From: a virus
Lineage: Duplodnaviria; Heunggongvirae; Uroviricota; Caudoviricetes
Length of the DNA: 44,371 nucleotides
Virus record (IMG/VR): IMGVR_UViG_2627854098_000001
Reading direction: 5' to 3' (one strand)
Positions 14,619 through 42,783 of the stretch are shown here, one piece after another (within the stretch, counting starts at the first letter, position 1; every line of letters starts with the position of its first letter). The notes under the pieces are model-generated. The model was not told the origin of the DNA. It worked only from the letters and a program-made list of their open reading frames with translations, and ran no database searches. Position numbers and translations under genes: made by a program.

Positions 14619-15614
14619 GTGACCGTGAGAGCACTACTGACCCCTGAAATTGCCCCGCGTATGGGGATCGTATTGTTCAGGCCCGGTTCAGAGCTGATGC
14701 CCCTGTTTATGCAGGGGCGTGTCCTGCTGGAGCCTGAGCCGGAACGTTATTCATCTTTTGCCAGTGGTGCCGTTCCGGCGGCATCACAACCGCTGGCGGA
14801 TGATCCTGCCATTCGGGCCGTGTTCCGCAATGAGGCAGTTATTCGTCGTGCGGGGGGTGTGGAATGTCTTGAAAGCTGGTTACTTCGTGAAAAGGGCTGT
14901 CAGTGGCCTCATTCCGGATGGCACAGCGAGAACATGACCACAATGCGACACGCGCCGGGCGCAATCCGTCTGTGCTGGCACTGCGATAACCTGCTTCGCG
15001 ATCAGTTCACGGAACGGCTGGAATCAATGGCAACGGATAACTGTGCCCGCTGGGTGTTGTCTGTTGTGCGTCGGGATCTCGGTTTTGATGACAGTCACGT
15101 TGTGACAATGCCGGAACTGTGCTGGTGGCTGGTTCGTAATGATCTGGCGGATGCCTTACCGGAAAGTGCAGCCCGTAAGGCACTGAGATTACCGAAGCCT
15201 GTTGTGCCGTCTGTCACCCGGGAAAGTGACCTTGTGCCTTCGGTTCCTGCCACCAGCATCATCCAGGATAAGGCGAAAAAGGTGCTGGCGCTGAAAGTGG
15301 ATCCGGAGTCGCCGGAGTCTTTTATGTTACGCCCAAAACGTCGCCGCTGGGTTAATGAAAAGTACACGCGCTGGGTTAAGACACAGTCGTGTGCATGTTG
15401 TGGAAAGCCCGCTGATGATCCCCACCACCTGATAGGCCACGGACAGGGTGGAATGGGTACAAAAGCGCATGACCTTTTTGTGTTGCCTTTGTGCAGAAAG
15501 CATCACGACGAGCTGCATGCGGATACCGTGGCATTTGAAGAGATGTATGGCTCCCAGCTGGAGCTGATATTTCGTTTTATCGATCGTGCGCTGGCAATTG
15601 GCGTACTGGTGTAA
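14619..15614 (+). CDS. DUF968 family protein (YdfU-like) with C-terminal HNH-like motif
   Basis: C-terminal HHLIGHGQGGMGTKAHD...LPLCRKHHDELH; position upstream of Q. Confidence 0.65.
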   Translation: MTVRALLTPEIAPRMGIVLFRPGSELMPLFMQGRVLLEPEPERYSSFASGAVPAASQPLADDPAIRAVFRNEAVIRRAGGVECLESWLLREKGCQWPHSGWHSENMTTMRHAPGAIRLCWHCDNLLRDQFTERLESMATDNCARWVLSVVRRDLGFDDSHVVTMPELCWWLVRNDLADALPESAARKALRLPKPVVPSVTRESDLVPSVPATSIIQDKAKKVLALKVDPESPESFMLRPKRRRWVNEKYTRWVKTQSCACCGKPADDPHHLIGHGQGGMGTKAHDLFVLPLCRKHHDELHADTVAFEEMYGSQLELIFRFIDRALAIGVLV

Positions 15615-15627
15615 GTGGAGAACGAGC

Positions 15628-16380
15628 ATGAACCTTGAAGCCTTACCGAAATATTACTCCCCAAAATCTCCAAAATTGAGCGATGACGCATCGGCGACAG
15701 GCTCGGGTGGTTTAACAATTACGGATGTAATGGCTGCGCAGGGGATGGTGCAGTCGAAAGCACCGCTTGGGTTTGCCTTATTCCTGGCAAAAGTTGGTGT
15801 TCAGGATCCTCAGTTTGCGATTGAAGGCCTGCTCAATTACGCGATGGCACTGGATAACCCGACATTGAACAAATTGAGTGAAGAAACCCGGTTACAGATC
15901 ATCCCTTACCTTGTGAATTTTGCCTTTGCTGATTATTCCAGGTCTGCGGCAAGTAAGGCTCGCTGTGAGCATTGTACTGGTACTGGATTTCATAATGTAT
16001 TGCGCGAAGTGGTGAAACATTCCAGAAGCGGGGAATCCGTTATCAAAGAAGAGTGGGTGAAGGAACTGTGTCAGCATTGTCATGGCAAGGGAGAAGTCAG
16101 CACGGCGTGCAGAGGGTGTAAGGGTAAAGGTATTGTCCTGGATGAAAAAAGAACCCGGCTTCATGGCACGCCTGTTTATAAGACTTGTGGGCGTTGCAAT
16201 GGAAACCGGTTTAGCCGTTTACCGACTACACTGGCACGACGTCATGTCCAGAAGCTGGTTCCAGACCTGACTGATTATCAGTGGTACAAAGGATATGCAG
16301 ACGTAATTGATAAACTAGTAACAAAGTGCTGGCAGGAAGAAGCATATGCTGAAACACAATTGAGAAAGGTGACGAGATAA
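15628..16380 (+). CDS. late-gene antiterminator Q-like protein with four CxxCxGxG zinc-finger repeats
   Basis: ATG 15628 with GGAG RBS; position immediately upstream of a strong promoter, terminator and lysis cassette; family from memory. Confidence 0.65.
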   Translation: MNLEALPKYYSPKSPKLSDDASATGSGGLTITDVMAAQGMVQSKAPLGFALFLAKVGVQDPQFAIEGLLNYAMALDNPTLNKLSEETRLQIIPYLVNFAFADYSRSAASKARCEHCTGTGFHNVLREVVKHSRSGESVIKEEWVKELCQHCHGKGEVSTACRGCKGKGIVLDEKRTRLHGTPVYKTCGRCNGNRFSRLPTTLARRHVQKLVPDLTDYQWYKGYADVIDKLVTKCWQEEAYAETQLRKVTR

Positions 16381-16411
16381 GTGATTTTCGCCGAAGATAG
16401 TGACATGAAGC

Positions 16412-16440
16412 TTGCATTTTTCAAAAAATATGGATAAGAT
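16412..16440 (+). promoter_or_regulatory. late promoter (pR'-like): TTGCAT-17-TAAGAT
   Basis: -35 at 16412-16417, 17-bp spacer, -10 at 16435-16440; downstream of Q, upstream of a terminator. Confidence 0.6.
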
Positions 16441-16486
16441 TTTCTCAACGATGGGCTTTGTATGTCTGCCGTTGATAATTTTCACG

Positions 16487-16510
16487 AACCCGCTGTTGAG
16501 CGGGTTTTTA
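16487..16510 (+). terminator. rho-independent terminator (tR'-like)
   Basis: AACCCGCT-GTTG-AGCGGGTT followed by TTTAT; about 50 nt downstream of the promoter. Confidence 0.7.
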
Positions 16511-16565
16511 TTTACTTGTACTGAAACACATTATATAACCTCATATCAGTTAAAAAGGAGGTTGT

Positions 16566-16901
16566 ATGATTAATGCCGTTGAGTACAGATTACCGTTAGG
16601 AAATATCTCTCCAGAGAATCTTGACGCGTTGTCAGAACTTATCGTTAAGCATTCCGATAAATTTAATAACTATGTACTTAGTTCTATTTCTGATGATGAT
16701 ATTCGATATTCTTACGATTACTACAATTTTGAAATCACAGAGATAGATGAATATGGGTTTCACTTTATAGCACCATATAGCTATTATGAAGGATGCGTTG
16801 ACAATAACTTCTCAGGAGAGGTTGAAGGTTATGCAGAATACGAAATTATTGATAATGAATTAGTCTTCTCTCTTGAGGAACTACCTTGGGATGTAAAATA
16901 A
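16566..16901 (+). CDS. highly acidic Tyr-rich hypothetical protein (111 aa), moron
   Basis: AGGAGG RBS before ATG 16566; about 24 Asp/Glu vs 5 Lys/Arg and 12 Tyr by my count; AT-rich; own terminator. Confidence 0.6.
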   Translation: MINAVEYRLPLGNISPENLDALSELIVKHSDKFNNYVLSSISDDDIRYSYDYYNFEITEIDEYGFHFIAPYSYYEGCVDNNFSGEVEGYAEYEIIDNELVFSLEELPWDVK

Positions 16902-16912
16902 ATATCAATAAT

Positions 16913-16940
16913 AAAGGCCGTAACGAACGGCCTTTATTAT
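16913..16940 (+). terminator. hairpin terminator after the acidic moron
   Basis: AAAGGCCG-TAACGAA-CGGCCTTT followed by ATTATTAT. Confidence 0.55.
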
Positions 16941-16953
16941 TATAAAATCATCA

Positions 16954-17358
16954 ATGCCTGATGAATTAGAATGTAATTTTCGAATTAATAATAAATCAAC
17001 ATATCATTTCACGCTCCGATTTTCTGTCGGAGGCGAAACTGCGGCTATTCATATGCACGAAAAAGAGAATCTTGCCGGAGCGTTCTGGCTTGTTTTGCTG
17101 ATCATCGCAGGTTGGGGGGGGCTTGTCCGTTACCTGATTGATGTGAAGCAGAGTAAAGCAACGTGGAGCTGGATAAATGCCCTCGCTCAGATAGTTGTAT
17201 CAGGATTCACCGGTGTTATTGGTGGCCTAATCAGTATCGAAAGTGGATTCAGTATTTACATGATTCTCGCAACTGCGGGGATTAGTGGTGCGATGGGTTC
17301 GGTTGCACTGACGTACTTCTGGGAACGACTGACAGGGGTGAAAAATGCAAAATCTTAA
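16954..17358 (+). CDS. holin (start uncertain; possibly internal ATG at 17053)
   Basis: Hydrophobic helices (FWLVLLIIAGWGGLV; IVVSGFTGVIGGLI; MILATAGISGAMGSVAL); immediately upstream of and overlapping the endolysin. Confidence 0.65.
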   Translation: MPDELECNFRINNKSTYHFTLRFSVGGETAAIHMHEKENLAGAFWLVLLIIAGWGGLVRYLIDVKQSKATWSWINALAQIVVSGFTGVIGGLISIESGFSIYMILATAGISGAMGSVALTYFWERLTGVKNAKS

Positions 17359-17821: not shown

Positions 17822-18255
17822 GCAGAGTAACGGTGATTATATCCGCTCTGGTTATCTGCATCATCGTCTGCTTGTCATGGGCTGTTGATAATTACCGTGA
17901 TGACGCCATCGTCTACAAAGTACAGCGCGATAAAGCCACATCCATCATCGCTGATATGCAGAAGCGTCAACGTAATGTAGCTGAACTCGATGCCAGATAT
18001 ACAAAGGAGCTTGCTGATGCTAATGCGACTATCGAAAGTCTTCGTGCTGATGTTTCTGCTGGGCATAAGCGCCTGCAAGTCGCCGCCACCTGTACAAAGT
18101 CAACGACCGGAGCCAGCGGCATGGGCGATGGAGAAAGCCCTAGACTTACAGCAGATGCTGAACTCCATTATTACCGTCTCCGAAGTGGAATCGACAAGAT
18201 AACCTCACAGGTCAATTACTTGCAGGAGTATATCAGGACGCAATGTCCCAACTAA
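17818..18255 (+). CDS. rz: i-spanin Rz
   Basis: N-terminal TM then coiled-coil; [22 protein letters not shown] like lambda Rz. Confidence 0.85.
18017..18202 (+). CDS. rz1: o-spanin Rz1 (embedded, +1 frame)
   Basis: Lipobox LLGISAC then Pro-rich segment; nested inside rz. Confidence 0.75.
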
Positions 18256-18325
18256 TCACATTTTGAGGATATTTAACGTCTATGCTTTAATGATTTTATT
18301 CATTGTTTTATAATCGCGAAGAATA

Positions 18326-18577
18326 ATGATGAACTTGGCAAAGGATATGATTATGCGTATTAAACCTCAAGATTTTAAGTTTGATGTGTTGACTGTTGCT
18401 GGTTACGCTAACCCTAAAGCTAAAACACATTTCGCACCTTCTGCTTCTGGATTTAATTTTAAATGGGAGTGGGAAGGGAAAATTTATGAGCTTCATATCG
18501 AGCAAGAAAAATTACAGTACCCTGATTTTATTCTTGAACGACTTTTTGATGCCGCAATTGAGATGGCTAAAAAATGA
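18326..18577 (+). CDS. hypothetical small protein (83 aa), AT-rich moron
   Basis: ORF only; no family recognised. Confidence 0.35.
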   Translation: MMNLAKDMIMRIKPQDFKFDVLTVAGYANPKAKTHFAPSASGFNFKWEWEGKIYELHIEQEKLQYPDFILERLFDAAIEMAKK

Positions 18578-18683
18578 CAAAAATCACCGGATGGGGTTTT
18601 TGTTTATAGATATTCACACATAGCCCTTGCATCTAGAACAGAAAATCTTGTCATGGCGCGGGGCTATGTTAGCAAAAATTTAT

Positions 18684-19186
18684 TTAATAGGATATTTTGT
18701 TTGCAGATTTAAGCTCTTTAAGAGTAGCGTCAAGTATATGTAAAAATAGAGAAGTGTCGCCATACTCATAATGTGGCTCGGATTTGTATTCTCTAATATA
18801 AATAAATCCACCTTTGGATAAAAATAAATCAATCAGCTCGTTGTTATTTTCATCGGTTGGGTCAATGGCAGCAAACTTCAATACAGGAGCTTCATCAATG
18901 ACTAGCAGTGTTTCTTTGAAAATAAGTTCTAGTTCATATGTTGAAAGTTTGAGGGTTAACCTATTTTTTTATCTTTATTGAAAATTATTGTGTCGCCAAG
19001 AAAATCGTATTCAGAGCTTGAGTCAATAATGTTATTCTTAAGTTTGAGAGATATTGCATCTAAAGCCTTTTTATGCTCTGCGCACTTAACAACTTTATGA
19101 ACATCTAAACTGGGGATACTCATAATACAACCACCTATGTAAGAACTAAAGAGCATTGAGTCTATGTGATTAATATCAAGACCCAA
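18684..19186 (-). pseudogene. minus-strand AT-rich hypothetical gene split into two ORFs by a frameshift at a T7 run (18964-18970)
   Basis: ORFs 18956-19186 and 18684-18881 would fuse into one ORF of about 155 codons if the run were A8 or A5 on the coding strand. Confidence 0.4.
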
Positions 19187-19225
19187 TTAAATTTTTTAAA
19201 TTATTAGAGTTAGATCCCACTTTAA

Positions 19226-38838: not shown

Positions 38839-39516
38839 ATGTCCATCATTTTTAATGGACACTATCGTATGAAACACCGGACCTGGATCACTGAAGCTTT
38901 ACGTCTTCACTTTGAAGAACATTTACCCCGGGTTGTGGCCGGGCGTCGCCTGGGTGTACCAAAATCAACAGTTTGTAGTATGTTCGTGCGCTTTCGGAGA
39001 GCTGGCCTTTCGTGGCCTTTGCCCGCAGGCATGTCGGAGCAGGAACTTGATGCCTGCCTTTACGGACAATTTTCCACGGTACCAGTCGTACGTCCTGAAA
39101 GCACCGTTATATCCGAAGCCCCCGTGGTAAAAAAACGTCCCCGGCGGCCCAACTTCCCTTATGAGTTTAAAATCGCCTTAGTGGAGCAGTCACTGCAGCC
39201 CGGAGCCTGTGTGGCGCAGATCGCCCGGGAAAACGGAATCAACGATAACCTGCTCTTCAACTGGCGCCATCAATACCGGAAAGGTGGCCTGCTGCCTTCC
39301 GGAAAAAATATGCCGGCACTGCTTCCCGTGACGTTAACGCCGGAGCCGGATAATAAAATCCCGGCCCCCGCACAGGAACCAGAGCAGATAAATACACCGT
39401 CCGACAGTCTGTGTTGTGAGCTGGTTCTGCCGGCCGGAACTCTCAGGCTTAAAGGTAAACTGACGCCGGCGTTATTACAGACACTTATCCGCGAAATAAA
39501 AGGGAGCAGCCACTGA
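38839..39516 (+). CDS. tnpA: IS66 TnpA (orf1)
   Basis: Identical to copy A. Confidence 0.75.
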   Translation: MSIIFNGHYRMKHRTWITEALRLHFEEHLPRVVAGRRLGVPKSTVCSMFVRFRRAGLSWPLPAGMSEQELDACLYGQFSTVPVVRPESTVISEAPVVKKRPRRPNFPYEFKIALVEQSLQPGACVAQIARENGINDNLLFNWRHQYRKGGLLPSGKNMPALLPVTLTPEPDNKIPAPAQEPEQINTPSDSLCCELVLPAGTLRLKGKLTPALLQTLIREIKGSSH

Positions 39517-39863
39517 TGATATCTCTCCCTGCAGGTTCGCGTATCTGGCTGGTTGCAGGTATCACCGATATGCGAAATGGCTTTAACGGCCTGGCATCAA
39601 AAGTTCAGAACGTCCTGAAGGATGACCCGTTCTCCGGACACCTGTTCATCTTCCGCGGACGCCGGGGTGACCAGATAAAAGTGTTGTGGGCTGACAGTGA
39701 CGGACTGTGCCTCTTCACCAAACGCCTGGAGCGGGGCCGCTTCGTCTGGCCAGTCACCCGTGACGGCAAGGTGCACCTTACTCCGGCTCAGTTATCCATG
39801 CTTCTTGAAGGTATCAACTGGAAGCACCCGAAACGAACGGAACGCGCTGGAATCCGCATATAA
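39516..39863 (+). CDS. tnpB: IS66 TnpB
   Basis: ATGA overlap with tnpA; conserved IS66 orf2. Confidence 0.85.
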   Translation: MISLPAGSRIWLVAGITDMRNGFNGLASKVQNVLKDDPFSGHLFIFRGRRGDQIKVLWADSDGLCLFTKRLERGRFVWPVTRDGKVHLTPAQLSMLLEGINWKHPKRTERAGIRI

Positions 39864-39882
39864 CCCGTTGTAAAGTGAGGAT

Positions 39883-41454
39883 ATGGACACCTCACTTGCT
39901 CATGAGAACGCCCGCCTGCGGGCACTGTTGCAGACGCAACAGGACACCATCCGCCAGATGGCTGAATACAACCGCCTGCTCTCACAGCGGGTGGCGGCTT
40001 ATGCTTCCGAAATCAACCGGCTGAAGGCGCTGGTTGCGAAACTGCAACGTATGCAGTTCGGTAAAAGCTCAGAAAAACTTCGTGCAAAAACCGAACGGCA
40101 GATACAGGAAGCACAGGAGCGAATCAGCGCACTTCAGGAAGAAATGGCGGAAACGCTGGGTGAGCAATATGACCCGGTACTGCCATCCGCCCTGCGCCAG
40201 TCTTCAGCCCGTAAACCGTTACCGGCCTCACTTCCCCGTGAAACCCGGGTTATCCGGCCGGAAGAGGAATGCTGTCCTGCCTGTGGTGGTGAACTCAGTT
40301 CTCTGGGATGTGATGTGTCAGAGCAACTGGAGCTTATCAGCAGCGCCTTTAAGGTTATCGAAACACAACGTCCGAAACAGGCCTGTTGCCGGTGCGACCA
40401 TATCGTGCAGGCACCAGTACCTTCAAAACCCATTGCACGCAGTTATGCCGGAGCGGGGCTTCTGGCCCATGTTGTCACCGGGAAATATGCAGACCATCTG
40501 CCGTTATACCGCCAGTCAGAAATATACCGTCGTCAGGGAGTGGAGCTGAGCCGTGCCACACTGGGGCGCTGGACAGGTGCTGTTGCTGAACTGCTGGAGC
40601 CGCTGTATGACGTCCTGCGCCAGTATGTGCTGATGCCCGGTAAAGTCCATGCTGATGATATCCCCGTCCCGGTCCAGGAGCCGGGCAGCGGTAAAACCCG
40701 GACAGCCCGGCTGTGGGTCTACGTCCGTGATGACCGTAACGCCGGTTCACAGATGCCCCCGGCGGTCTGGTTCGCGTACAGTCCGGACCGGAAAGGTATC
40801 CATCCACAAAATCACCTGGCCGGTTACAGCGGTGTGCTTCAGGCCGATGCTTACGGTGGTTACCGGGCGTTATACGAATCCGGCAGAATAACGGAAGCCG
40901 CGTGTATGGCTCATGCCCGGAGAAAAATCCACGATGTGCATGCAAGAGCGCCCACCTACATCACCACGGAAGCCCTGCAGCGTATCGGTGAACTGTATGC
41001 CATCGAGGCAGAGGTCCGGGGCTGTTCAGCAGAACAGCGTCTGGCGGCAAGAAAAGCCAGAGCCGCGCCACTGATGCAGTCACTGTATGACTGGATACAG
41101 CAACAGATGAAAACACTGTCGCGTCACTCAGATACGGCAAAAGCGTTCGCATACCTGCTGAAACAGTGGGATGCACTGAACGTGTACTGCAGTAATGGCT
41201 GGGTGGAAATCGACAACAACATCGCAGAGAACGCCTTACGGGGAGTGGCCGTAGGCCGGAAAAACTGGATGTTCGCGGGTTCCGACAGCGGTGGTGAACA
41301 TGCGGCGGTGTTGTACTCGCTGATCGGCACATGCCGTCTGAACAATGTGGAGCCAGAAAAGTGGCTGCGTTACGTCATTGAACATATCCAGGACTGGCCG
41401 GCAAACCGGGTACGCGATCTGTTGCCCTGGAAAGTTGATCTGAGCTCTCAGTAA
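39883..41454 (+). CDS. tnpC: IS66 transposase TnpC (intact, 523 aa)
   Basis: Full-length ORF with N-terminal coiled-coil/leucine zipper, CxxC zinc-finger and DDE-type region. Confidence 0.9.
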
Positions 41455-41966: not shown

Positions 41967-42037
41967 GTAAGCGTACAGCCTGAACCGTCTGGTCAGAATC
42001 TGACGAATTAGACAAAGTGGTGTCCACCAAATAAGTA

Positions 42038-42439
42038 GTGGGAACCAAAGTGTCAGATATGCAGAAAAATGTGACTCCCGGCAGGCGAAAAGGCTGCCCT
42101 AATTATCCTCCCGAATTTAAACAGCAGCTCGTTGCTGCCTCCTGTGAACCCGGGATATCCATCTCAAAACTTGCTCTTGAAAATGGCATTAACGCCAATC
42201 TGTTGTTCAAATGGCGACAACAATGGCGCGAGGGAAAGCTGCTATTACCTTCTTCAGAGAGCCCCCAGCTACTTCCTGTGACTCTCGATGCAGCTGCCGA
42301 ACAGCCAGAATCGCTCGCAGAGGACCCGGAAACCCTCAGTATCAGCTGTGAGGTAACGTTCCGGCACGGGACGCTCCGCTTCAATGGCAATGTCAGCGAA
42401 AAGCTCCTGACTCTGCTGATACAGGAACTGAAGCGATGA
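42038..42439 (+). CDS. tnpA: IS66-family TnpA (133 aa)
   Basis: Homologous to copy A/B TnpA (PNYPPEFKQQLVAAS...NLLFKWRQQWREG). Confidence 0.8.
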   Translation: MGTKVSDMQKNVTPGRRKGCPNYPPEFKQQLVAASCEPGISISKLALENGINANLLFKWRQQWREGKLLLPSSESPQLLPVTLDAAAEQPESLAEDPETLSISCEVTFRHGTLRFNGNVSEKLLTLLIQELKR

Positions 42440-42783
42440 TCCCGTTACCTTCCGGGACCAAAATTTGGCTGGTTGCCGGTATCACTGATATGAGAAATGG
42501 CTTCAACGGCCTGGCTGCGAAAGTACAGACGGCGCTGAAAGACGATCCCATGTCCGGCCATGTTTTCATTTTCCGGGGCCGCAGCGGCAGTCAGGTTAAA
42601 CTGCTGTGGTCCACCGGTGACGGACTGTGCCTCCTGACCAAACGGCTGGAGCGTGGGCGCTTCGCCTGGCCGTCAGCCCGTGATGGCAAAGTGTTCCTTA
42701 CACAGGCGCAGCTGGCGATGCTGCTGGAAGGTATCGACTGGCGACAGCCTAAGCGGCTGCTGACCTCCCTGACCATGCTGTAA
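42436..42783 (+). CDS. tnpB: IS66-family TnpB (115 aa)
   Basis: Same length and conserved blocks as copy A/B TnpB; ATGA overlap. Confidence 0.85.

Follow-up and report, generated by a model that had tools for sequence, protein, structure and literature searches.

An AT-rich moron cassette for a conserved acidic protein between the Q antiterminator and holin genes of enterobacterial prophages

Morons of the lambdoid phages HK97 and HK022 were reportedly defined by Juhala, Hendrix, and colleagues as extra units composed of a promoter, a gene, and a terminator. Most lambdoid morons are located in the late region, and the Shiga toxin genes (stx) stay linked to the antiterminator gene Q (PMC3430580). 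The slot behind Q also holds other cargo: orf47 and a 350-amino-acid (aa) gene in phage SfV, two hypothetical genes and a DNA methylase gene in mEp460, and one hypothetical gene with four tRNA genes in PhiR47_1. Here, we analyze a further occupant of this slot in a Caudoviricetes genome of 44,371 nucleotides (nt) (IMG/VR record IMGVR_UViG_2627854098_000001), and we refer to this whole stretch of DNA as the window. The occupant is a plus-strand gene at positions 16566 to 16901, which encodes a strongly acidic protein of 111 aa (WP_000606308.1; PHROG 13663). An initial annotation, made from the sequence alone, had described the gene as a moron and proposed that its product is a DNA-mimic anti-restriction protein or an immunity protein. 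Escherichia coli UTI89 harbors, adjoining glaH, a complete SfV/e14-like myovirus prophage to which the window is identical and in which the gene product is annotated as a “hypothetical protein.”

Our analysis indicates that the gene very probably belongs to an AT-rich, self-contained moron cassette that spans about 0.5 kb and is the first unit past the Q-dependent late leader of this SfV/e14-like prophage. We assign four parts to the cassette: a candidate, sigma-70-like promoter element abutting the leader terminator tR', a hairpin in the 5' untranslated region (5'UTR) that buries the ribosome-binding site (RBS) and the start codon, the 111-aa open reading frame (ORF), and a terminator of its own. 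As in lambdoid morons, the cassette is extra relative to close relatives, deviates in GC content, carries its own terminator and a candidate promoter, and leaves the operon genes undisturbed. This last point follows from one related locus (L021), in which the cassette is a clean 514-bp insertion between homologs of SfV orf47 (phrog_331) and orf48, which takes in the gene together with some 135 bp on its 5' side and 46 bp on its 3' side. The moron described in the initial annotation is borne out in its AT-richness, its terminator, and its absence from close relatives. Two traits of this late-region moron are modestly unusual and set it apart from other lambdoid morons. First, the cassette is bound to one slot across unrelated flanks, including four Q families, even where its proteins share only about 26 to 30% identity. 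Second, a conserved leader hairpin, accompanied by the promoter-like element, occludes the Shine-Dalgarno (SD) sequence, and translation would accordingly depend on the promoter used. The cassette shares the slot and the pR'/tR' type of leader with other cargo between Q and S (stxAB, orf47 and the 350-aa methylase gene of SfV and mEp460, and the tRNAs of PhiR47_1), and by analogy, its gene would be transcribed upon induction by read-through of Q-modified polymerase. Unlike that cargo, it encodes no toxin, signal peptide, methylase, or RNA gene and is flanked by terminators on both sides.

The 111-aa ORF is a genuine coding gene on which purifying selection acts. The comparison of the window gene with its Salmonella homolog yields saturated synonymous sites (pS, 0.79) and a proportion of nonsynonymous differences (pN) of 0.17, and the ratio of nonsynonymous to synonymous substitution rates (dN/dS) between the Salmonella and Citrobacter homologs is 0.28; we therefore consider the frame real and constrained. 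An open frame of 111 codons is also expected by chance with a probability of only about 1.5e-4, given the base composition. Recomputation returned exactly the coordinates, length, AT-richness, and residue counts that had been noted before: 24 Asp and Glu residues (22% of the protein), 5 Lys and Arg residues, and 12 Tyr residues, which give an isoelectric point (pI) of 4.05 and a net charge of -19. The product has neither a signal peptide nor a recognizable effector domain of known type. The GC content of the gene is 33.3%, versus 51.6% for the window, 48% for Q, and 45% for the holin gene, and homologous genes range from 35 to 40% versus 44 to 52% for their loci. The RBS noted initially, AGGAGG, is present as an SD sequence at 16556 to 16561 and ends 4 nt 5' of the ATG.

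The cassette follows a late leader of the lambda type. The Q gene occupies positions 15628 to 16380 of the plus strand by its RefSeq start (the longest ORF begins at 15586), and its product matches PF03589 (E = 3e-54) and phrog_127 (E = 1e-108; WP_001047143.1). A putative late promoter, pR', lies at 16412 to 16440 on the same strand, with TTGCAT (16412 to 16417), a 17-bp spacer, and TAAGAT (16435 to 16440). These are the hexamers and spacing of the initial annotation, which had called them consensus-like, but they agree with the sigma-70 consensus at only 7 of 12 positions and were hence not listed by a consensus scan. The assignment instead draws on collinearity with lambda pR', in which TTGACT, 17 bp, and TAAATT are followed after 6 nt by AACGATGGG; the window has the same 6-nt distance and the same AACGATGGG. 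This segment (16447 to 16455, plus strand) is identical to positions +1 to +9 of lambda pR' and marks the probable transcription start and sigma-dependent pause element. We take the exact AACGAT hexamer to be the -10-like pause element of lambda. In lambda PR', a -10-like element in the initially transcribed region has a role in the sigma-dependent pause and in Q loading (PMC9191641).

The intrinsic terminator tR' (16486 to 16509, plus strand) consists of a hairpin at 16486 to 16507 with a 9-bp GC-rich stem and a T run (predicted free energy [dG], -14.9; z score, -4.6), and it would end the leader RNA at about 60 nt. The terminator placed here by the initial annotation is thus present, and the SfV record labels its counterpart of this hairpin as a terminator. 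Over its 128 bp, the leader shares about 89 to 91% identity with the leaders of SfV, mEp460, PhiR47_1, and Stx2c phages, a homology that stops at the end of tR'. The Q gene, promoter, pause element, and terminator of a lambda-type Q-dependent late leader all appear to be in place, in agreement with the pR'/tR' arrangement proposed before. At tR', similarity to SfV-type phages ends and similarity to the Salmonella and Citrobacter cassette begins, and the tR' hairpin appears to be a common joint for module exchange. In phages with a Q of the PF06530/DUF1133 type (L003, 5846 to 5874; L015, about 3840 to 3870), a pR'-like TTGAAT-17-TTAAAT overlaps the stop codon of Q. The gap between Q and the cassette in these phages is only 129 to 158 bp, and it still ends in a near-identical tR' hairpin (AACCCGC...GCGGGTTTTT).

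Directly past tR' lies a candidate promoter of the cassette (16511 to 16539, plus strand), recognized by its conservation, in which TTTACT is followed by either TATATA after a 15-bp spacer or TATAAC after a 17-bp spacer. The clade of the window (E. coli, Salmonella, and Citrobacter) has TTTAC(T/A) and TATATAAC in common around a diverged spacer. A large distant clade carries the upstream motif TTTTTT-cATTTC-TGA..AAAAA-CATTT-TTGACA-TAA, followed after 15 nt by TAnnnT; positions 1, 2, and 6 of this -10-like hexamer are invariant, and the middle ones are free. The element of the large clade occurs once per locus and always precedes the family gene in the 24 fetched loci, and a scan of IMG/VR for it returned 19 contigs, all 19 with a family gene. 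In both clades, the conserved upstream hexamers look like sigma-70 promoters.

The -10 candidate of the window's clade overlaps the 5' arm of the 5'UTR hairpin (16530 to 16570, plus strand). In this predicted structure, the arm at 16530 to 16542 (AUUAUAUAACCUC) pairs with 16558 to 16570 (GAGGUUGUAUGAU) and covers the SD sequence and the AUG. The stem is 13 bp long (dG, -13.7; z score, -4.1), and the segments from -40 to +6 of 57 other prophage genes gave minimum free energy z scores with a median of 0 and a minimum of -2.8. Equivalent SD-occluding stems are present in most phage-borne homologs, and their arms covary with the variant of the SD sequence (CCUC/GAGG, CCACC/GGUGG, UUUUUCACC/GGUGAAAAA, and UUCCUU/AAGGAA). 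A terminator hairpin of the bidirectional type stands directly 3' of the gene (16907 to 16941, core 16913 to 16935, plus strand; dG, -20.2; z score, -7.5), where the initial annotation had placed one. All lineages that we inspected, with loci from Salmonella, Citrobacter, Enterobacter, Duffyella, and Erwiniaceae, have a hairpin and a T run at this place past the stop codon, and their sequence differs between lineages. An Rfam scan of positions 16200 to 17100 produced sub-threshold noise only.

To place the gene in its genomic context, we compiled 57 loci that contain a family gene. These are the window and its copy in UTI89, 24 loci retrieved by looking up exact proteins or scanning genomes, and 31 taken from IMG/VR. 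Their neighbors were classed with our own ORF and blastp script and with PHROG and Pfam scans. Fifty of the 57 loci are phage-borne, and in all 50, the gene lies between a Q antiterminator gene and a holin gene, which answers in the affirmative the question raised initially of whether homologs always sit there. The Q genes fall into four families: phrog_127 (with two subtypes that are 35% identical), a 192-aa PF06530/DUF1133 type, a 121-aa phrog_79 type, and phrog_753. Adjoining holins are of at least four types (3_3, 8+3_7, 2_3, 2_1, and phrog_6384), and the endolysins belong to three families (GH24, GH19, and Phage_lysozyme). The virion modules differ as well, from HK97-like myovirus in the window to lambda-like GpA/portal_2 elsewhere. 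With Q, holin, endolysin, and virion types all varying, the protein therefore covaries with no lysis or virion partner. The remaining seven loci are chromosomal orphans of two lineages, six in Erwinia tracheiphila and one in another enterobacterial contig. No decayed Q or holin genes were found near the gene in the four orphan loci checked, which argues that the protein can act alone.

The orphan copies of E. tracheiphila (L016 to L018 and L026, gene at about 4076 to 4399) and of the other contig (L020, 4001 to 4333) have about 950 bp of gene-free DNA on at least one side and carry neither the cassette promoter element nor the SD-occluding hairpin. Insertion sequence elements lie nearby in Erwinia, and the Erwinia orphans are annotated with a 22-aa N-terminal extension that is probably spurious. 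A toxin gene adjoining the family gene was found in none of the 57 loci. Bacteriocin-type genes occur several genes away from it in two groups of phages: a gene for a 364-aa pore-forming colicin (PF01024) in the nin region of Citrobacter phages (L009 to L014; in L009 at 2181 to 3275, minus strand), and a 766-aa pyocin-S/colicin DNase gene past the lysis cassette of an Erwiniaceae phage (L024, 6598 to 8330; L025, 2917 to 4649).

Of 5426 complete E. coli genomes, 131 contain the 573-bp interval in full, among them S88, IHE3034, APEC O18, and ATCC 11775, and the first 128 bp, which is the leader alone, matches in 1022 of the 5426. The proposal that this is a cargo slot behind Q is confirmed by SfV, mEp460, and PhiR47_1, which hold other cargo behind the same Q and leader backbone. 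A 350-aa gene recurs in the slot (L021, 4516 to 5568, with L044, L045, L047, and L048 alike; L002, 3093 to 4145; L061, 3783 to 4835) and its annotation in L021 and mEp460 reads N6/N4 DNA methyltransferase or DNA methylase. SfV orf48, which has 75.5% DNA identity to this gene, is itself annotated as “unknown.” In three lineages, this methyltransferase gene stands between the family gene and the holin gene, 182 to 183 bp past the cassette.

Sequence searches delimit a small family. The protein matches PHROG 13663, whose function is listed as unknown, from end to end (residues 1 to 111 to profile positions 1 to 111; E = 9.4e-54), and scans against Pfam, NCBIfam, and PADLOC gave no match. The initial statement that no family could be recognized therefore stands for the latter three databases but not for PHROG; the PHROG profile represents the same family and carries no name or function itself. 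A word-indexed search recovered only the Salmonella (72% identity) and Citrobacter (69%) relatives. An exhaustive hidden Markov model (HMM) search of 1.84 billion cluster representatives gave 26 matches, including about 22 full-length proteins of about 110 aa. Two long proteins among these matches, P0019 and P0029, were rejected as repeat or low-complexity artifacts (DUF11 repeats and similar). A second profile search added further members from Enterobacter, Citrobacter, Salmonella, Duffyella, and Erwinia, all annotated as “hypothetical.” The family comprises about 25 clusters at 50% identity, with members of about 110 aa each, found in Enterobacterales only, and its protein sequences diverge down to about 26 to 30% identity. 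Every member is acidic (net charge, -9 to -20; pI, 4.05 to 4.99), and the Tyr content varies from 3 to 12, so that the Tyr-richness of the window's protein is not conserved. Neither subfamily has a homolog in 50,697 isolated phages by tblastn, and the same search of 72,556 plasmids gave one match, in a 37.7-kb non-mobilizable record. Of two scans of genome contigs, the first returned none and the second only E. tracheiphila. A literature search found nothing by the accession WP_000606308.1 and nothing on the gene by broader keywords. Judged by these searches, the family is conserved but uncharacterized, and it is distinct from known anti-restriction and immunity families.

We modeled the protein with AlphaFold2, and the predicted local distance difference test (pLDDT) score rose from 74 with 4 sequences to 86.7 with 25 sequences (predicted template modeling score, 0.77). 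In the model, a strand and two helices accompany a curved antiparallel sheet. One hairpin of this sheet is long, and G76-C77-x-D79 lies at its tip. This predicted fold is a generic cystatin/NTF2-like alpha+beta roll. Its strands alternate between hydrophobic and polar residues, and the modeled outward-facing positions E56, E66, E91, E93, E102, and D104 are conserved as acidic. Among 42 sequences, F33, D45, R47, Y48, G76, C77, D79, Y92, D104, E105, and W108 are invariant or nearly so, and the family motifs read Y[YF]xGCxDxN and LDETxW. Scores against VirB8 periplasmic domains, SnoaL-like proteins, and Imm-NTF2 reflect generic fold resemblance at 4 to 13% sequence identity. In contrast to cystatin/NTF2-like proteins, the 25 family members that we scanned gave nothing consistent in Pfam and no NTF2 or Imm family match, and no toxin or secretion genes adjoin them. 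Searches of PDB sequences with phmmer and a profile gave only noise (e.g., IpgC, E = 0.2), and Foldseek found no match in BFVD. Overall, none of these comparisons gave a convincing match by structure or by HMM, and this holds for known DNA mimics and immunity families as well; the profile and structure search recommended in the initial annotation accordingly yields no DNA-mimic or immunity fold.

Our leading interpretation, which we hold tentatively and at less than even odds, is that the product is a cytoplasmic protein of about 13 kDa that works alone as a decoy, binding or inhibiting in stoichiometric amounts a basic protein that probably binds nucleic acids. It could be an anti-defense or immunity-like factor, which overlaps with the proposal of the initial annotation, the target perhaps being a host defense nuclease or a competitor's toxin, and we infer that the target is common to Enterobacterales or their parasites. 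Stand-alone action on such a widespread target is suggested because the gene is real and conserved, its cassette is self-contained and depends on no particular type of Q, holin, endolysin, or virion, orphan copies persist, one face of the sheet is acidic, and polar residues are invariant. A component of lysis or of the virion is unlikely. Membership in a known immunity family, including Imm-NTF2, is not supported: the neighbors are Q and holin genes, no toxin lies by the orphans, and no Imm family of Pfam matches.

The cassette architecture offers a way in which expression could be tied to the identity of the transcript. The candidate -10 falls within the hairpin's 5' arm or immediately precedes it, and RNA from the cassette promoter would therefore lack this anti-SD arm and be translatable. 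Such RNA would be made in the lysogen and right after DNA entry. A Q-antiterminated read-through RNA from pR' would instead keep the arm and should be translated poorly. A location near one genome end may also matter: Q lies at 32.8 kb of the 37.1 kb of SfV, with the region from Q to lysis within about 4 kb of the right end. In lambda, the right genome end enters the cell first. Early action of a right-end gene through a constitutive promoter in cos phages would be a speculative extension of this analogy. At low confidence, all of this could be combined into a new type of inhibitor, an acidic roll unrelated to known DNA mimics, anti-CRISPRs, or sponges, with its output switched by transcript identity: RNA from its own promoter would be translated in the lysogen or on entry, and the late Q RNA would be silenced. 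Residence in the slot would then reflect a need for dual transcription or for the first-injected end.

Several observations weigh against the inhibitor interpretation and its proposed expression. The cassette promoter is deduced from nothing but conserved sequence, the 15-bp spacing in the large clade is unusual, and TATATAACC of the window's clade could be conserved purely as a hairpin arm. A cruder measure of SD pairing in a fixed segment separates the family only modestly from control genes (medians, 0.53 versus 0.44; p = 0.007). Database names are all “hypothetical protein,” and neither the family searches nor the model searches found fold or HMM similarity to any known inhibitor. The invariant D45, R47, Y48, C77, D79, D104, E105, and W108 could mark a place where a ligand is bound or a reaction catalyzed, and not a surface that contacts a protein. 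Finally, fidelity to the slot between Q and the holin gene is left unexplained by a function expressed purely in the lysogen, and it hints at a link to late transcription.

This last point leads to the first alternative, a late-phase role, which we consider unlikely but still worth weighing. The protein would be the first late product once Q fires, and it would neutralize abortive infection (Abi) sensors of terminase, portal, or capsid or be released in bulk at lysis like Stx, with the hairpin only tuning or stabilizing the message. Such a role would better explain why every phage-borne copy occupies this interval, although the Q genes fall into four families, the holins are of at least four types, and protein identity drops to about 26 to 30%. 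The slot is also used by cargo coupled to induction, with stx linked to Q (PMC3430580) and a methylase and tRNAs in other phages with the same leader. However, the conserved promoter-like element and the flanking terminators would insulate the cassette from the late transcript, and the RBS would be buried on the read-through RNA. Orphan copies outside phages and a product with neither a signal peptide nor a known effector domain likewise speak against a late-phase role.

A small-molecule binder or small enzyme is slightly less probable. Here, the NTF2/cystatin-like cone would hold a pocket of invariant Asp, Arg, Tyr, Cys, and Trp residues, serving, for example, as a sponge for a nucleotide immune signal or in simple catalysis. 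The invariant D45-x-R47-Y48, G76-C77-x-D79, and D104-E105-x-x-W108 are in line with a pocket, but 111 aa with two helices is below the typical size of NTF2 enzymes, and a net charge of -19 is ill-suited to anionic nucleotides. To our knowledge, the protein is also unlike Tad1, Tad2, and Acb2, as far as the PDB searches alone allow this comparison.

The mechanism favored in the initial annotation, a classical DNA mimic of the Ocr/ArdA type that blocks type I restriction or BREX on entry, now appears improbable. The protein does share with T7 Ocr, ArdA, Ugi, HI1450/DUF440, and T4 Arn a small size, a pI of about 4, at least 20% Asp and Glu, and a conserved acidic surface, and its acidity is kept family-wide. 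Related phages carry a DNA methyltransferase gene, also anti-restriction in nature, in the same slot and, in three lineages, directly 3' of the cassette, and a right-end position (as for SfV Q) combined with a constitutive promoter could allow early action. Against this, neither the sequence searches nor the fold searches linked the protein to Ocr, ArdA, ArdB/KlcA, Ugi, HI1450, or other mimics. The Ocr fold is a helical bundle, and the family differs in its predicted alpha+beta roll, in its invariant polar residues, and in its location in the late region, outside the early or leading region. Invariant residues at specific positions are untypical of charge mimics, and the cluster of D45, R47, Y48, G76, C77, D79, D104, E105, and W108 would be expected of a site for specific binding or catalysis more than of a protein that imitates charge in a general way. 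A distribution with no homolog among the isolated phages and a single one among the plasmids also counts against it. What survives of the earlier proposal is the strong acidity; the lack of Pfam, NCBIfam, and PADLOC matches, the lack of an adjacent toxin gene, and the invariant polar cluster favor neither a DNA mimic nor an immunity protein.

Finally, a lysis accessory, such as an antiholin or a regulator of lysis timing, is highly improbable, and so is a chaperone for the virion or its assembly. In favor of such roles, the gene stands immediately 5' of the holin gene (53 to 100 bp from the longest holin ORF) and encodes a small acidic cytoplasmic protein like some chaperones. Against them, its at least four holin families are unrelated, endolysins of three families and differing virion modules accompany it, the orphans have no lysis genes nearby, a terminator separates it from the holin gene, and close relatives of the phage lack it.

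Since the slot behind Q is home to Shiga toxin and other conversion genes, a family locked to this slot is a candidate lysogenic-conversion or anti-defense factor. Its hosts include lineages of extraintestinal pathogenic E. coli (UTI89, S88, IHE3034, and APEC O18), Salmonella, Citrobacter, Enterobacter, and Erwiniaceae, and a single gene in about 0.5 kb makes the cassette easy to test. If the transcript-dependent expression proposed above is true, a promoter inside an anti-SD hairpin would be a simple means to park cargo in the late operon while keeping it outside the late program; otherwise, the cassette is one more well-delimited moron of unknown function.

Other features of the prophage complete the description of the locus. 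The first lysis gene downstream of the cassette encodes a holin of the LydA type (17053 to 17358, plus strand; PF16083, E = 1.5e-21; phrog_785; WP_000544527.1) and is followed by genes for a GH24 lysozyme and Rz. In RefSeq, the holin begins at 17053 (101 aa), whereas the ATG of the longest ORF is at 16954 (134 aa); on this longer version, the match to PF16083 starts only from residue 47. Within the 112 nt between the cassette terminator and 17053, a small hairpin (CTCCGATTTTCTGTCGGAG) overlaps GGAGG. On the other side, immediately 5' of Q, positions 14619 to 15614 encode a protein of the DUF968 family that contains an HNH-like motif (PF06147, E = 3.5e-80; HNHc_6 at the cutoff). A DUF968 gene takes this position in Pfam-annotated loci of six lineages (among them the window, L003, L009, L015, and L021); most IMG/VR loci have an ORF of about 326 to 355 aa there, and Erwiniaceae phages have NinG instead.

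A second AT-rich island (18250 to 19200; GC content, about 32 to 36%) lies between Rz and the HNH and terminase genes and is probably another moron slot. It contains a hypothetical gene of 74 aa (18353 to 18577, inside the ORF at 18326 to 18577), for which scans gave no Pfam, NCBIfam, or PADLOC match and no significant PHROG match, and two unannotated minus-strand ORFs (18684 to 18881 and 18956 to 19186). Toward the far end of the prophage, by RefSeq coordinates converted from UTI89, are genes for a 630-aa DUF262-domain protein (about 39061 to 40950, minus strand) and a LEM-3-like GIY-YIG protein (42002 to 42775, plus strand). These two genes adjoin a decayed recombinase gene and a DinI pseudogene, and they look like defense-type cargo.

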